A stretch of DNA of 46,423 nucleotides from Chthonomonadaceae bacterium. Lineage in GTDB: Bacteria > Armatimonadota > Chthonomonadetes > Chthonomonadales > Chthonomonadaceae. Location: the NCBI GenBank assembly GCA_035650735.1, contig DASRGZ010000031.1:1-46423 (forward strand), read 5' to 3'. The position numbers and the translations under genes were made by a program. The notes under the pieces are model-generated. The model was not told the DNA's origin. It did no database searches and worked only from the letters and a program-made list of their open reading frames with translations. The stretch's first letter is position 1. Each line of letters starts with the position of its first letter. Positions 2,333 through 33,082 of the stretch are shown piece by piece.

Positions 2333-3547
2333 CTATGGCTGGGCTGTGAGGCTTGCCTGCCCTGCTCCCAACGCACTATCAGGGGCGGCAGAGGAGGGGC
2401 TCTCTGTTTCTATGGAGGGTATGGCGAGGCGCTTTTCCGCCTGTGCCAGCGCCGCCTGCACGCGAGGGTCCTGCGGCGCGCGCTGGGCGGCATAACGCAG
2501 ATACCGCGCCGCCATCTCTGGCTCGTCCCGCGCCAGCAGGGTTTGCCCGAGAGCCAGAAGGGTAGGAATATTCTCTCGGTCCGTCTGGAACTGCTTTAGC
2601 AGCGTCTCCTGGCGTGCCGCCAGCTCGCTCTCCCGCTGGAACTCCTGCTGAAAGTGGGCTGACTGGGCGCGAAGGCCGAGGGCGGCATAGAGCCGGGCCA
2701 GCAGGTAGAGTGCGCGCGGATAGTGCTTGCGTCCTGTGGCCTTTCTGGCAAAGGGGAGGGCCTGTTGCAAGCGGCGTTGGTTGAAGTAAAGCTGCGCTAA
2801 CTCGTAATTGGCCTCCGGGTAGTCCGGCCTGAGCGTCAGGGCGCGCCGGAGGTTCTGTTCCGCAAGCCGCGCGTTTTCCGGGGAGGGGGCAAGGCGCGCA
2901 TAGGCAGAACCCAACCAGCGAAAGAGCTCGGGGCGTGCCGGGTCCTTATCTACGATGGCGCGCAGCACCTGTACTGCCTGGCCGGGGTTGCCGCTCAGGA
3001 CCAGCACGCGTCCATAAGCCAGTTGCACGCGCGGCCTGTCGGGATAGGCCCGGGCCGCCCACGCCAGATGCTCCAGCGCCGCCTTTGCCGCAGATTTACG
3101 CTCGTAGAGCAGCCCTGCCAGCAGATGGGCGCGTGCGCAGTTCGGGTTGAGCTTCAGCTCCTGCTCCGCGTCGCGCAGCGCGGAGACCTGCAATCCGGCC
3201 CGCACTTCGGCATCAGCCAGATGGCACCAGGCGTGCTCTGGTTTGGCGGCGCGCGTCAGATAGTCTTTCCAGTACTGGATGGAGGTTTCCAGATCCCCAC
3301 GAGCCTCCGCAAGCTCGGCTCGCGCGCGATAGGGAGGGGCAAATGCAGGATCAAGACGAATGGCCTCGCCATACACGTCCCAGGCATCGGATGTCATCCC
3401 GGCAGCAGCCAACATCTTGCCGCGCGCATACGCGGCAGCGGCGGGCGCAGGCCGCGCTCGCCACCAGAAGATAAGGGCCGCCACGCCCCCGACGACGAGC
3501 GCGCCGAGGACAAGGCGGCCTGAAAAACGACGCAGAAACCGTATCAT
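2333..3547 (-). CDS. Membrane-anchored tetratricopeptide repeat protein
   Basis: N-terminal TM helix; repeated TPR motifs (AIRLDPAFAPPY, LKLNPNCARAH, ALTLRPDYPEANYELA). Confidence 0.85.
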   Translation of the reverse strand: MIRFLRRFSGRLVLGALVVGGVAALIFWWRARPAPAAAAYARGKMLAAAGMTSDAWDVYGEAIRLDPAFAPPYRARAELAEARGDLETSIQYWKDYLTRAAKPEHAWCHLADAEVRAGLQVSALRDAEQELKLNPNCARAHLLAGLLYERKSAAKAALEHLAWAARAYPDRPRVQLAYGRVLVLSGNPGQAVQVLRAIVDKDPARPELFRWLGSAYARLAPSPENARLAEQNLRRALTLRPDYPEANYELAQLYFNQRRLQQALPFARKATGRKHYPRALYLLARLYAALGLRAQSAHFQQEFQRESELAARQETLLKQFQTDRENIPTLLALGQTLLARDEPEMAARYLRYAAQRAPQDPRVQAALAQAEKRLAIPSIETESPSSAAPDSALGAGQASLTAQP

Positions 3548-3645
3548 TACCTGTTTGCTTGCTTAACTCCGCGTCCGGGCTTCGAGCCGGACGCTCGATC
3601 AGGGGGCCAATGGTTCGGACGGTGTCTCATCGATCCCCTGACCCG

Positions 3646-4532
3646 TCACTTGTAGAAGTCGCAGATGTTATCGGAGTTGTCGTCCTCATCCATCCACCAA
3701 CTCCAGTTCCAGGCGTTCGCGTCGGGCTGGCTGCCATCTTCGACAATGCCGATATTGTTGTAGGTGCCGGCGGTGTACCGGGGTCCCTTGCGCGCGCTGA
3801 TGGTCCTGGATGCTTTCGAGCGGGCCATGAACCGCCGGCGGTGTACCGGGGTCCCTTGCGCGCCAGAATGGGCACCAGCTTGGACGCCTTGGCGTGGCCG
3901 TCGAAGAACGCCCAGTTCATCAGACCGCCCTTGCCGCGGTGCAGGTTCAGGGCCTGCTGCCCGCACGAGCCGACGTTCTTCCACACGGACCAGTCCGCCT
4001 GGTCGTTGCAGGCTGCCGTAGACTCCATCAGCATGACATCTTCCGCCGGGTGGTGCAGCGCCGCCAGGTCAATGCCGCGATTGGGTACGGGGGCTTGCAG
4101 GAACCACTCAATCGTGCCGTTGACCGAATAGGAGACTTTGAAGTTCTTGTCCGCCTCTTCGGTCGAGAGGTCGCGGTTCGGATTGGAGGGGCACTGCCAG
4201 ATCTGGTAGTTCTTGATATAGGGATAGGTGGCCGAGCGCCAGCCGGTAATGGGCGGATCGCTGGCGTTATCCGATTTGCAACAGCCGGGGCACTCTCCGG
4301 TCGTCGGGTTGAAGCCGGTCATGCGGGTCGGCGCATACTTCTCATCGGCGTCCTGAGCGTACATTGCCATGGCCGTACCTAGCTGCCGCATGTTGCTCAG
4401 GCAGGCTGCCGCGCGGGCCGACTCACGCGCTTGGGCAAAGACCGGGAAGAGGATGGCGGCCAGAATCGCGATAATAGCGATGACGACGAGCAACTCGATC
4501 AGGGTAAAGCCCTGGGGCTTACCGCGTTGCAT
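3646..4532 (-). pseudogene. Prepilin-type N-terminal methylation / H-X9-DG (DUF1559-like) protein, frameshifted by a 68-bp insertion
   Basis: RBS plus ATG 4532; [47 protein letters not shown]. Removing 68 bp restores a 272-aa ORF ending ..DNICDFYK at stop 3646. Confidence 0.85.
3766..3863. repeat. Perfect 30-bp direct repeat flanking a 38-bp unique insert
   Basis: GCCGGCGGTGTACCGGGGTCCCTTGCGCGC at 3766-3795 and 3834-3863; insert at 3796-3833. Confidence 0.95.
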
Positions 4533-4649
4533 GGACAGTTCCTCCTTACAGGAATAGGGTATCAACGGCTACAGATAAGACACAAAGGCAACGCACGGCG
4601 GGCGCGCTGCCGGAAAAGCCAGGCGCACGAGCCGCCGCGGTGCGCGCGG

Positions 4650-4904
4650 CTAGGGACCGCCCGCACCGCCTCCCTGCGCGCCGGAGGGCGGGGCCATCCC
4701 ACGCATCCGCATGGCGGCGGGGGGCATATTGGTCGGCGGGGGGCCTTGCATCTTCCCGGTTGTCGGCGGCAGCGGAGTTGCCGGAGTTGGCACGCCGGTA
4801 TCGGTACGCATACTCCGGGCAATGCTGAAAATAAGGATCGCGATAGCCACGATCACCACGCCGACGATGACAGGGACAGGAATATTCTTCACGAGTCGCT
4901 TCAT
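4650..4904 (-). CDS. Small single-TM protein with Pro/Gly-rich tail
   Basis: GAGGAG RBS; hydrophobic IPVPVIVGVVIVAIAILIF; located in the prepilin operon. Confidence 0.75.
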   Translation of the reverse strand: MKRLVKNIPVPVIVGVVIVAIAILIFSIARSMRTDTGVPTPATPLPPTTGKMQGPPPTNMPPAAMRMRGMAPPSGAQGGGAGGP

Positions 4905-5035
4905 CTCCTCACCCGGCTAGCCCTCCGCAGGCGGGGACCGGAAACCGAGTGCTTTCTATTCAGGCGCTCGCCGAGAGGGCGCAGGTCGTGCAGGCTGCTG
5001 CCCGCACGCGGAGGCCGGAACTCAGGCTCTCTATT

Positions 5036-5305
5036 CTATTTATGGGCGTCCTTGTCCCCGGCTTCCGAGGTTTTAGCCTTCTCGGTAGCATGAGCGCCTT
5101 CGGAGGTAGGACTCTGCCTGGAGGACGGCTTCGGCTTTACTGCCGGGGTCTTTTTGGCTGCCGCCGTTGGGATACGCATGGGCATCACCTCGGGAAGGCG
5201 GTTCCATTTCGGCGCCTCGGACTGATACCACATCACGGCAAAGATCGCGCCAACGGCTGCCAGAACGACCAGGACACTCCAGATGGGGCTGATCTTCTTG
5301 TTCAC
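5036..5305 (-). CDS. Small single-TM protein
   Basis: GGAGGAAGGAG RBS before GTG 5305; NKKISPIWSVLVVLAAVGAIFAVMW TM followed by a Pro/Lys-rich tail. Confidence 0.7.
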   Translation of the reverse strand: MNKKISPIWSVLVVLAAVGAIFAVMWYQSEAPKWNRLPEVMPMRIPTAAAKKTPAVKPKPSSRQSPTSEGAHATEKAKTSEAGDKDAHK

Positions 5306-5553
5306 GGTTTCTCCTTCCTCCATTCCAGGCTGAGCGCGACGACAGCCGGAGCGGTACGCCGCTCCGCCTCCTGCGCCTGATCCGTGCGGGCAGAGGCTTC
5401 GGCAAGCTTACACACGTAGCGTTCCGATTGCAGGGCGATTTGGCGGGGAGACTTACGAAGAGGCAGGGCCGGGTCGGGACGCTCCAGGAAATCCAAGTCA
5501 TTCTCTATGCTTATGACGTCGTAGGCGGCGTGAAGTTTCGCACAGGAGGCCAT
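5302..5553 (-). CDS. Candidate leaderless 83-aa hypothetical protein
   Basis: ATG 9 nt downstream of a consensus -10; stop overlaps the next start (GTGA); no recognisable motif. Confidence 0.35.
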   Translation of the reverse strand: MASCAKLHAAYDVISIENDLDFLERPDPALPLRKSPRQIALQSERYVCKLAEASARTDQAQEAERRTAPAVVALSLEWRKEKP

Positions 5554-5561
5554 TTCGTTTC

Positions 5562-5590
5562 ATTATAGGGCAGAACAGGCCGTTTGTCAA
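5562..5590 (-). promoter_or_regulatory. Consensus sigma70 promoter
   Basis: Minus strand TTGACA(5590-5585)-17 nt-TATAAT(5567-5562). Confidence 0.8.
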
Positions 5591-5721
5591 ACGCTTTTGC
5601 AGGCCAAGAACGTATCCAGGGTCCTTTCGTTTTCCGGCACTTCTGCGGACGCCAAAAACGGAATGACCTGAAAGCATTTAGGGGCGGGAGGAAACACGGC
5701 GCTTCCTTGCGAACTTGTCTG

Positions 5722-5756
5722 CGACTATCCTGCATCGAACGACTATCCTGCATCGA
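5722..5756. repeat. Tandem duplication, 17 bp x2
   Basis: CGACTATCCTGCATCGA at 5722-5738 and 5740-5756. Confidence 0.9.
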
Positions 5757-5767
5757 GGTTACGCTGC

Positions 5768-7777
5768 TTGATACCAGGCCTACGGCAGTCCGGAGAGGCG
5801 GCCTCCCCACAACAGGAAGCTTCCGGGCCTCCCATTCCCCAGGCGCGCACGCGCATGGTGACAGCACGCGCTGTCGGTATTGCGCTGGTGCTGATGCCCT
5901 TCAACGCCTACTGGATTATCCAGATGGAGGTGGTGCGCTACTCCGGGCATCCGACCACCATCTCGCTGTTTTTCAACGTCGTCTTTATCCTGGCCGCGCT
6001 GCTGGGGCTCAACGCGCTGATCGGGAAGCTCTGGCCGCGCCTGCGCCTGACGCCGGGCGAGCTGCTGACGGTCTATATACTGCTCTTTCTCTCCTCCGCC
6101 ATTACCGGGCACGACATGATCGAGGTGCTTCTGCCGATTATGGCGCACGCCCACTACTTTGCGCGTCCGGAGAACGGCTGGGCGACCGATATCCTCCCTT
6201 ATATTCCCCCCTGGCTCAGCGTCTCCGATCCGCAGGCGTTGGCCGAGTTCTATACCGGCACCGGCACGTTCTACAGCCTCCATAACCTGCGCGCCTGGGT
6301 CCAGCCCGTTCTCTGGTGGACGCTGCTGCTGACGCTCCTGGGCTTTCTGATGCTGTGCATCAATACCCTCCTGCGGCGGCAGTGGACGGAGAGCGAGAAG
6401 ATGGCCTATCCGCTGGTGGCCCTGCCGCTGGAGATGGTCAACCCGCGCACCCAACTTTTCAAAACGCGGCTGTTCTGGTGGGGCGTGGCCGTCTCCGGCG
6501 CGCTGGAGTTGTGGAACGGGTTGGCCTATCTCTACCCCTCGCTGCCCATGCTGCCCCTGAAACGCTTCGGCCCCATGCAGGACCTCCACACCTACCTGAC
6601 TTCGCCTCCCTGGAACGCCTTAAATGGCCTCTCCATGGCGCTCTATCCCTTCGGCATCGGGCTGGGGATGCTGCTGCCGGTGGACCTGCTGTTTTCCGCG
6701 TGGTTTTTTGCGTGGGTGTGGCAGTTGGAGCGGGTCGTCGGGGCGGCGTTCGGCTACATGGATGTGCCCGGATTCCCCTATACGGAGCCGCAATCGTTCG
6801 GAGCGTACATGGGCCTGGCCGCCTTTGCCCTCTGGGTCAGCCGCCGCCACTTCCTACGCATCTGGCGGGGCCTATGGAACCCACGCGCCGACCTGCACGA
6901 CGCCCATGAGCCGCTGCCCTATCGCTGGGCCGTCTTCGGGCTGGCGGCAGGCAGCCTGGCGATCTTTGTCTTCTGCCGCGCCGCCGGAATGTCGCCCGTG
7001 ATGATCATCGCCTTCTTTGTGATCTACTTCGGGCTGGCGATAGCCATCACCCGGATGCGCGCTGAGCTTGGCCCGCCCGCCCACGATCTGCACGTCTCCG
7101 GCCCCGACAGCATGATTCCTACCGTGATGCCGTCCAACCAGATCGCGCGGCCTGACCTGACGATGTTCTCCATGTTCTATGGCTTCAACCGGGCCTACCG
7201 CTCCCATCCCATGCCCGTGCAGTTGGAGGGCTTTAAGATCGCCGAGCGCGCCGGAGGGCGCTATCGTCCCCTCTTCTGGGCCATGCTGCTGACCATCGTC
7301 GTCGGGGCGCTGTGCGCCTTCTGGGCCGATCTCGACCAGAGCTACCGCTACGGCGCCGCCGAGAAGATCGCCCCGCCGAACGTACAGTTGATCTTCGGCA
7401 GTGAGCCCTGGAACCGGATGACCACCTGGATCAAATCGCCCACCTCGCCGCAAACCCAGTTCAACACGCGGGTCGCCATCGCGGTCGGTTTCTTTATCAC
7501 GCTGCTGCTAAACGCTCTGCGCGTGCGCCTGGCCTGGTTTCCGTTCCATCCGGTCGGCTATGCGGTCTCCAGCTCCTGGTCGCTGGGGCTGCTGTGGCTG
7601 CCGCTGTTTATCGCCTGGATAGTCAAGCTGGTGCTGCTGCGCTATGGGGGCTTGCGCGCCTACCGGCAGGCGCTGCCCTTCTTCCTGGGCCTCATCCTGG
7701 GCGAGTGCATTATCGGCAGCCTGTGGTCGCTGGTCGGCATTCTGCTGCATATCCCGACCTACGCCTTCTGGCCGTGA
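5768..7777 (+). CDS. Polytopic membrane protein, DUF6785/DUF6784-like (OPT-like putative transporter)
   Basis: About 15 TM segments; RRQW..EKMAYPL, ITRMRAELG, PFHPVGY, PFFLGLILGE; start uncertain (TTG 5768 or ATG 5855). Confidence 0.8.
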   Translation: MIPGLRQSGEAASPQQEASGPPIPQARTRMVTARAVGIALVLMPFNAYWIIQMEVVRYSGHPTTISLFFNVVFILAALLGLNALIGKLWPRLRLTPGELLTVYILLFLSSAITGHDMIEVLLPIMAHAHYFARPENGWATDILPYIPPWLSVSDPQALAEFYTGTGTFYSLHNLRAWVQPVLWWTLLLTLLGFLMLCINTLLRRQWTESEKMAYPLVALPLEMVNPRTQLFKTRLFWWGVAVSGALELWNGLAYLYPSLPMLPLKRFGPMQDLHTYLTSPPWNALNGLSMALYPFGIGLGMLLPVDLLFSAWFFAWVWQLERVVGAAFGYMDVPGFPYTEPQSFGAYMGLAAFALWVSRRHFLRIWRGLWNPRADLHDAHEPLPYRWAVFGLAAGSLAIFVFCRAAGMSPVMIIAFFVIYFGLAIAITRMRAELGPPAHDLHVSGPDSMIPTVMPSNQIARPDLTMFSMFYGFNRAYRSHPMPVQLEGFKIAERAGGRYRPLFWAMLLTIVVGALCAFWADLDQSYRYGAAEKIAPPNVQLIFGSEPWNRMTTWIKSPTSPQTQFNTRVAIAVGFFITLLLNALRVRLAWFPFHPVGYAVSSSWSLGLLWLPLFIAWIVKLVLLRYGGLRAYRQALPFFLGLILGECIIGSLWSLVGILLHIPTYAFWP

Positions 7778-7789
7778 TTAGCGTAAGGT

Positions 7790-7824
7790 TGCGCCCGGCC
7801 CTAAAGGAGTAGGCTGCGGACGGC
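7790..7824. repeat. Partial copy of REP family A
   Basis: TGCGCCCGGCCCTAAAGGA..GGCTGCGGACGGC matches the start of 22089-22293. Confidence 0.7.
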
Positions 7825-7966
7825 TAGCGCGCTCAGAAGGCAAAAACCAAGCCCATGCCGATAGCCACGACGGCGTGGCGGAACGAGAGAACGGCTTCGG
7901 TGGGGGCAGCGCGCGGTTGGGTTTCTGTCTGGAGAGGTGGGGCCGAATGGGGGCAGCCGGCATACT

Positions 7967-16414: not shown

Positions 16415-16499
16415 TTTCTAAACGCCATGACCAGCGAACACTCATGTTTCGTGATCCGTGACACGAGCCACCTTTCTAAACACCATGACCAGTGAACAC
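16415..16499. repeat. 27-bp direct repeat (2 mismatches) with 31-bp filler, spanning a start codon
   Basis: TTTCTAAACRCCATGACCAGYGAACAC at 16415-16441 and 16473-16499. Confidence 0.85.
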
Positions 16500-22054: not shown

Positions 22055-22088
22055 CGTTCTCCTCCCAAAAACGGCTGTGCCCTCCAAC

Positions 22089-22293
22089 TGCGCCCGGCCC
22101 TAAAGGACCGGGCTGCGGACGGCAAGCCCCATAAATGGGGCTGCGTCAGGTGGAGCGGTTCCTCTCAAGGGATAAAGGCATCCAATCGCTCTGCCTGGCG
22201 AGAGCTTCCCTTGTAGGAGGCTAACCAACCTCTCGTAGCCCGCTTTAGCGGGCTTGCCGTCCGCAGCCCACTCGTTTACGGGTGGGCTGCCAG
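22089..22293. repeat. REP family A element (REPIN/BIME-like)
   Basis: GGGCTGCGGACGGCAAGCCC ... GGGCTTGCCGTCCGCAGCCC inverted arms; close homolog at 32914-33073. Confidence 0.9.
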
Positions 22294-32913: not shown

Positions 32914-33073
32914 CTGGCAGCCCACCCGTAAACGAGTGGGCTGCGGACGGCAAGCCCCATCAATGGGGCTGCGCCGGGTGGATCGGTTCCTCTCAAGGGT
33001 AAAGGCATCCAACCTCTGGTAGCCCGCTTGAGCGGGCTTGCCGTCCGCAGCCCGGTTATCGAGATCCGGGCAG
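32914..33073. repeat. REP family A element
   Basis: Near-identical to 22089-22293 but lacking a 43-bp insert. Confidence 0.9.
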
Positions 33074-33082
33074 AATTTGACG

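Follow-up and report, generated by a model that had tools for sequence, protein, structure and literature searches.

The spacer-writing enzymes of this bacterium have very probably inserted DNA outside CRISPR arrays: the short insertion in a prepilin-type gene studied here, together with the main class of similar scars elsewhere in the genome, is best explained by off-target Cas1-Cas2 integration. Taken singly, the focal site is a modest observation and the result lies in the genome-wide pattern. The genome holds 122 curated units in which two copies of a host sequence flank a spacer-sized insert, 70 of them exact, and these scars outnumber the 79 spacers of the resident array. They avoid genes, and the main class shares a target motif that can be mapped onto the leader end and the repeat of type I-B arrays. 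The scan for further units proposed in the earlier note thus revealed many more.

Within the window, by which we mean the whole stretch of 46,423 nucleotides that was analysed, the focal unit consists of two identical 30-bp copies of host coding sequence (3766..3795 and 3834..3863, forward strand) on either side of a 38-bp insert (3796..3833, forward strand). Direct sequence comparison confirmed the perfect duplication and its coordinates as first described, and the duplication cannot be extended either way. In the first copy, position 12 (3777) is A and position 19 (3784) is T, which is the motif of its class, and GG precedes the target at -3/-2 (3763..3764, forward strand), as in most class A scar flanks and in five of seven related type I-B leader ends. 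No further copy of the 30-mer occurs in the 6.52-Mb genome, searched at up to six substitutions, and it is identical to a related 30-bp CRISPR repeat at 9 of 30 positions. A functional array would have a conserved, Cas6-processable repeat, a leader and several units; here the repeat is unique host coding sequence present in two copies only. Judged by its testable features, the unit thus reads as an off-target Cas1-Cas2 integration and not as a functional array.

The earlier note had also taken the insert for a captured piece of another gene, and this was borne out: all of its bases but the last (37/38) match a histidine kinase gene of the same genome (G000:C15:17136), where they encode a 12-residue piece of a 759-aa GAF/PAS hybrid histidine kinase. 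GCC lies directly upstream of the source and its first base is G, which places CCG across the upstream edge. A source was thus found in the host genome, with the CCG one base out of register for a protospacer adjacent motif (PAM). Slippage at the PAM end is described for type I-B in the available part of PMC5416893. In the proposed sequence of events, a prespacer would have been cut from the cell’s own kinase gene beside a CCG-type PAM, type I-B Cas1-Cas2 (with Cas4) would have linked it to the two strands of the prepilin gene at points separated by 30 bp, and repair of this full-site integration would then have duplicated the 30-bp non-CRISPR target. Template switching or microhomology repair, in which a distant 38-mer is copied and 30 bp of the target are copied again, could likewise yield a host-derived insert, and one source base does match the repeat end. 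The end homology to be expected of such an event, named in advance as evidence against integration, amounts to this one base at one end and none at the other. The sources of placed inserts lie on other contigs, most inserts do not occur in the genome, and neither the narrow sizes nor the positional motif would be expected from this process, which we regard as highly improbable.

The interrupted prepilin-type N-methyl/DUF1559 gene (3627..4532, minus strand) now encodes 301 aa, i.e. 233 original residues followed by 68 read in the altered frame; the stop codon used before the insertion is at 3646-3648. As claimed before, the additional 68 bp shift the frame and their removal restores a minus-strand open reading frame of 272 codons that begins with the ATG at 4532, so that the final 39 residues of the original product have been replaced by 68 others. 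The further claim that a surface pilin was disrupted holds for the frameshift but is unsupported for the loss of a pilin: the N-terminal methylation motif and DUF1559, both Pfam domains, are retained upstream of the break, and 42 genes of the prepilin-type/DUF1559 kind were found in the genome by motif search. Since both domains lie upstream of the break and so many such genes exist, the cost of the hit to the cell may be small. The gene content points to Armatimonadota. The ortholog in a relative of the same genus (G001) has a single copy of the target without an insert and has kept a tryptophan-rich tail, which provides the uninterrupted allele that a comparison with sister strains was meant to reveal.

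An assembly or library artefact is next to inconceivable as the origin of the unit. The assembly is of metagenome type, and the comparison with other sequencing runs used contigs, which drop rare variants, rather than raw reads, from runs some of which may be the source of the assembly itself. Sequence words of positions 2500-6000 of the window are present to 98–99% in six runs from three studies. Four of eight listed runs (X3, X4, X5 and X7) were compared at the focal site, the only one of the 122 units so compared, and X7 does not cover it. In X3, X4 and X5, which come from three studies of 2017 and 2024, both junctions are covered without any difference at the site, and the X4 contig carries a base change of its own at 3616. 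In each of these runs, one contig spans copy 1 and ends at 3824, and a second, beginning at 3795 or 3803, spans copy 2; no contig joint in the three runs skips the 68 bases. The breaks bracket 3795-3832, the stretch common to the source gene, as a branch in the assembly graph would. An empty allele of the same species was found neither in the contigs of X3–X5 nor in the metagenome contigs scanned with the focal repeat; that scan returned one record (L102) with the filled allele and almost as long as the window, which is possibly where this DNA comes from and was hence not counted. An artefact is also at odds with the genome-wide observations that the copies have diverged by transitions, that the units avoid genes and that they have a motif in common. 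The contigs of other runs thus carry the insertion, for which the earlier note had proposed confirmation with reads. Of the original idea of a fresh ectopic acquisition, the ectopic integration stands while the fresh single event does not, given that the filled form is the only one in runs of 2017 and 2024 and is one of about 122.

The population was delimited in two ways. Among isolated exact repeats of 27–45 bp genome-wide, the gap measures 32–40 bp in 73 of 81 cases and takes any other value in only eight, which chance would not produce. A search allowing mismatches gave 148 candidates. Of these, 25 were set aside because they were multi-copy units or I-E-like mini-arrays, and C59:26536 because it is a tandem protein repeat, which left 122; a few of the imperfect units may be chance. 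By period, the units fall into class A (63–70 bp, n=83, repeat about 30 bp), class B (58–62 bp, n=10) and class C (71–78 bp, n=29, repeat 35–40 bp). The 24 exact 30-bp scars have inserts of 37.0 bp on average. An uninterrupted paralog of the target is present in the genome for 20/122 units, and mismatches between scar copies are mostly transitions (59/76). At G000:C224:43547-43709, three copies of a unique 29–30-bp target enclose two different inserts, and this locus appears to be an off-target site into which a second spacer was integrated. Insertion of an IS element, a transposon or a casposon was considered and rejected: the inserts share neither ends nor a passenger, with one overlapping pair among 123, both members of which derive from one simple repeat. 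Target duplications of such elements are short.

Several further observations were made alongside these counts. Possibly a second, older unit exists in the window at 16415..16499 (forward strand), where 27-bp copies with two mismatches enclose a 31-bp gap; its sizes are atypical and its status is uncertain, and the imperfect repeat pair sits at a probable gene start. The window also contains members of a dispersed palindromic intergenic repeat family (7790-7828, 22083-22293 and 32914-33080), and scars in other parts of the genome often have repeats of such families as their targets. A 34 + 39 bp repeat-insert-repeat unit, excluded from the count, recurs in about 14 copies, among them G000:C131:39088 and C40:5616. 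Most copies are at contig ends. The breaks fall within a dispersed repeat, and the unit may mark one terminus of a mobile element that was not assembled, or a scar that such an element carried along as it spread.

Relatives carry far fewer such units. In samples, not whole genomes, of 13 relatives, 12 of them with cas1, we found one exact non-array unit in 1.84 Mb, where about 20 would be expected at the density of the focal genome. This unit, of class A-like size, lies between cas1 and cas2 of G020 (L150:3342), and a second class A-like unit with one mismatch lies inside the cas operon of G025 (L148:17439). G001 has two class C-sized units with one mismatch each, one of which ends like a true CRISPR repeat, and the relatives also gave two tandem or low-complexity hits.

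The targets of class A share a motif. With both ends of each target pooled, 97 of 166 ends have T 12 bases in (random 30.2, sd 4.9, maximum 42 in 300 draws), 58 of 166 have CC at +2/+3 on the outside (random 15.0, maximum 25), and 43 combine the two (random 2.9). Written on a 30-mer, the motif is GGN|A12, T19|NCC, and the focal site has the GG, A12 and T19. We infer that the enzyme reads a symmetric site, GGN|N11-A-N6-T-N11|NCC, made up of two half-sites that each combine a leader end with a mid-repeat anchor 12 bases in. This motif matches the mid-repeat anchors of type I-B and the leader ends of relatives, while the identity of whole targets to the repeat is low (11.6/29; random 10.1). Class C is without it and instead has, at -7 to -5, TG in 26 (random 10.4) and TTG in 11 (random 2.1) of its 58 ends. 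In class B, several targets resemble type I-E repeats by eye, and the hairpin strength of the targets does not differ significantly from random.

The genome encodes one candidate for the enzyme. Contig C93 carries cas6, cas7, cas5, cas3 and cas4 of type I-B, type III-A csm genes, and one cas1b and one cas2, which are the only cas1 and the only cas2 of the genome. Its array has 80 identical 29-bp repeats and 79 spacers of 36–38 bp (mean 36.7 bp). The host features anticipated in the earlier note were thus found, with one correction: cas1, cas2, cas4 and spacers of the right length are present, and the native repeat measures 29 bp and not 30. The locus as a whole (G000:C93:7723-21337) is a hybrid in which the I-B genes, the III-A csm genes and a putative ring nuclease share cas1-cas2 and the array, and a WYL/WCX regulator lies upstream of cas6. 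Its Cas1 (G000:C93:8250-9428, L003) is of type I-B with an acidic, variable insertion of about 50–95 residues between the domains that is common to relatives. This acidic insertion (about 60 residues) was considered as a cause of the high scar load and rejected, as relatives with few scars have it too. Single, slightly degenerate type I-B repeats also lie off the array (G000:C19:48195, C89:7861, C152:3579, C162:11576, C166:40669).

We infer that the resident Cas1-Cas2 of C93 made the main class, which comprises 83 of the 122 units when assigned by period. That this class instead stems from another type I-B module with a 30-bp repeat, either an older one or one missing from the assembly, is unlikely but deserves weight. 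Scars peak at 30 bp against 29 bp in all 80 native repeat copies, and their period is about 1.5 bp longer. Arrays beside orthologous Cas1 genes in relatives have 30-bp repeats in six of seven cases and 31 bp in one, and leader ends of GGN in five of seven, with AGG and CGC in the others, so that the scars are 30 bp long and GG-flanked like the relatives’ arrays whereas the resident array has 29 bp and a GTC leader end. The assembly, at 97.6% completeness in 224 contigs, could also lack such a module. Against it stand the single cas1 and single cas2 found, and the two class A inserts that overlap resident spacers 38 and 54. In addition, the available text on the Haloarcula hispanica I-B system (PMC4872114) describes a one-base deletion upstream of the anchor that gives a 29-bp duplication with the same enzyme. 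A module of this kind would alter the address of the enzyme and not the mechanism.

Classes B and C may have had other makers. It is about an even chance that the period-58–62 class (10 units) was made by a type I-E system and the period-71–78 class (29 units) by a system with 36–38-bp repeats, the cas1 genes of both now being absent from the assembly. No cas1 matching either class was found in the assembly, and no remnant of the 37-bp repeat of G001 occurs in the genome at up to nine substitutions. Type I-E-like mini-arrays (period 61–64) and single repeats are present at G000:C109:6231, C126:9900, C19:53148, C42:25176 and C127:3615 with no I-E cas1, and one of their spacers matches G000:C91:1275. 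The three size classes set against one cas1, and targets that overall are little like the repeat, could also point to a CRISPR-independent integrase or repair pathway that captures 35–39-bp DNA with a 30-bp stagger. We consider this very unlikely: the sizes, the anchor positions, the leader-like flanks, the CCG context and the sequence shared with array spacers all point to CRISPR adaptation, and both class A-like units of the relatives sit inside cas operons.

The inserts themselves also bear on the proposed Cas1-Cas2 integration. Stretches of 16–17 bases are shared with native spacers by three of 123 inserts, compared with one of 3000 random genomic 37-mers; the spacers concerned are numbers 2, 38 and 54 from the leader. 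One of the three units is a 35-bp duplication, which blurs the class split. Among 122 inserts, nine have a unique source in the genome, always on a contig other than that of the scar, two match a simple repeat and 111 could not be placed. Directly upstream of the seven self-derived class A inserts, CCG was found in four cases, CCG shifted by one base in one (the focal insert), CTG in one and neither in one, and two of the overlaps with native spacers give differing contexts, CCT and CGG. The CCG-type PAM rests on few cases: no source was found in the genome for 111 of the 122 inserts, and two array spacers and one insert, searched for as exact matches in viral contigs, had no counterpart there. 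At the seven sites we also judged by eye how the PAM is oriented with respect to the GG side: two sites were consistent, one was contrary and four gave no information. None of the 79 native spacers has a match in the genome outside the array, so that self-derived sequences make up 9/122 scar inserts against 0/79 array spacers (p 0.013), which is what an escape of the scars from autoimmune selection would produce. The 43.5-kb contig C15, an ordinary piece of the chromosome, supplies four of the nine sources (p ~1e-4), and two scars 350 bp apart on C135 both hold C15 sequence. Native spacers gave no match that would suggest priming of the source contigs (best 26 of 36–41 bases), and contig ends revealed no link among these contigs.

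Selection appears to have shaped what remains. A simple codon model called 4806 genes, probably fewer than exist. Of 123 units, 12 fell inside these genes, 28 at gene edges and 83 between genes; after one unit was later dropped, 11 of 122 lie inside called genes, compared with 2003 of 3000 random sites matched for A12/T19. All six frameshifting units within genes are still exact, while three of five in-frame ones have decayed. Class C is older on average than class A (exact 12/29 vs 54/83, p 0.03). These figures suggest that the events were spread over a long time and that most of those inside genes were purged. Scaling up from the gene-free share (111 non-genic units) would give about 330 events originally, though part of the deficit in genes could reflect targeting and not purging.

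As for the high load, one tentative explanation, which we prefer as an added cause but regard as a candidate only, is that GG and one base of the repeat have disappeared from the native junction, in a lineage in which HU/IHF was not found. The apparent degeneracy of the leader-repeat junction is specific to the focal genome among the eight arrays compared. A search for HU/IHF genes (PF00216), whose control was positive in 9/14, found none in the focal genome (97.6% complete) and a single one among the 41 genomes examined from the order, the focal one included; the focal genome also gave no archaeal-type histone. Since relatives share the absence of HU/IHF and have about tenfold fewer scars, this absence is at most permissive.

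Several known systems bear on these findings, as far as the available parts of the respective reports go. Over-expressed Cas1-Cas2 of E. coli type I-E produces off-target “neo-CRISPR” integration (Nivala, Shipman and Church 2018, via 10.1101/148544, PMC7054753 and PMC11788318). Like there, spacer-sized DNA is found outside arrays, a repeat-length host target is duplicated and a site may seed a new array, as one site here has two inserts. However, the E. coli work as described in these sources concerns rare events under laboratory over-expression, with circumstantial evidence in two other species, whereas we describe a wild genome with a type I-B system and about 122 retained units of different ages in three size classes. 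In Haloarcula hispanica I-B, according to the available text of Wang et al. (PMC4872114), mid-repeat motifs at positions 11–15 and 18–22 set the length of the duplication, and loss of one upstream base leads to a 29-bp duplication, which parallels the resident 29-bp repeats beside the 30-bp repeats of relatives. A12 and T19 fall in these two motifs, and the systems are alike in having anchors about 10 bp from each cut. The Haloarcula experiments mutated the array itself, whereas the anchor described here, A12/T19 with symmetric GG/CC flanks, comes from off-target sites found in nature. HU in Thermotoga profunda III-A and IHF in E. coli I-E control the fidelity of integration, and HU suppresses III-A off-target integration in vitro (PMC13769266, available part). 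In vitro, the integrase yields extensive off-target products if the DNABII protein is missing, and no DNABII gene was found here; but the CRISPR type differs, and the absence here is common to relatives with about tenfold fewer scars. Ectopic acquisition in Streptococcus thermophilus (PMC7999890, available part) likewise takes place away from the leader end, but uses true in-array repeats where the scars described here use unrelated host sequence. The literature searched, with most subscription papers and supplements outside its scope, contained no paper on natural genome-wide scars. What is new is how many scars there are, that they form three classes whose motifs differ, that the motif can be mapped to the leader and the repeat, that invader sequence occurs in scars and array alike, and that a candidate cause can be named.

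Put together, the data may describe a layered fossil record, a reading that we hold at slightly less than even confidence. Three integrases, two of them lost, would each have left scars of their own size and motif; off-target events (about 330, two thirds of them purged) would exceed the spacers of the array; the resident I-B system would misfire chronically via a drifted junction in the absence of HU/IHF; and the scars would keep self and invader prespacers that the array cannot, with at least one growing into a new array.

Off-target spacer integration has so far been known mainly from over-expression and test-tube work. The findings presented here suggest that the spacer-writing enzymes have long acted as a mutator in this bacterium. 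A wild genome with more than 100 retained events, a deficit in genes and a readable motif makes three open questions testable from sequence alone: the mutagenic cost of adaptation to the host, how Cas1-Cas2 chooses and measures its target without host factors, and the birth of new arrays. In addition, the scars keep a record of prespacers free of autoimmune selection and may serve to date CRISPR systems that the lineage has lost.
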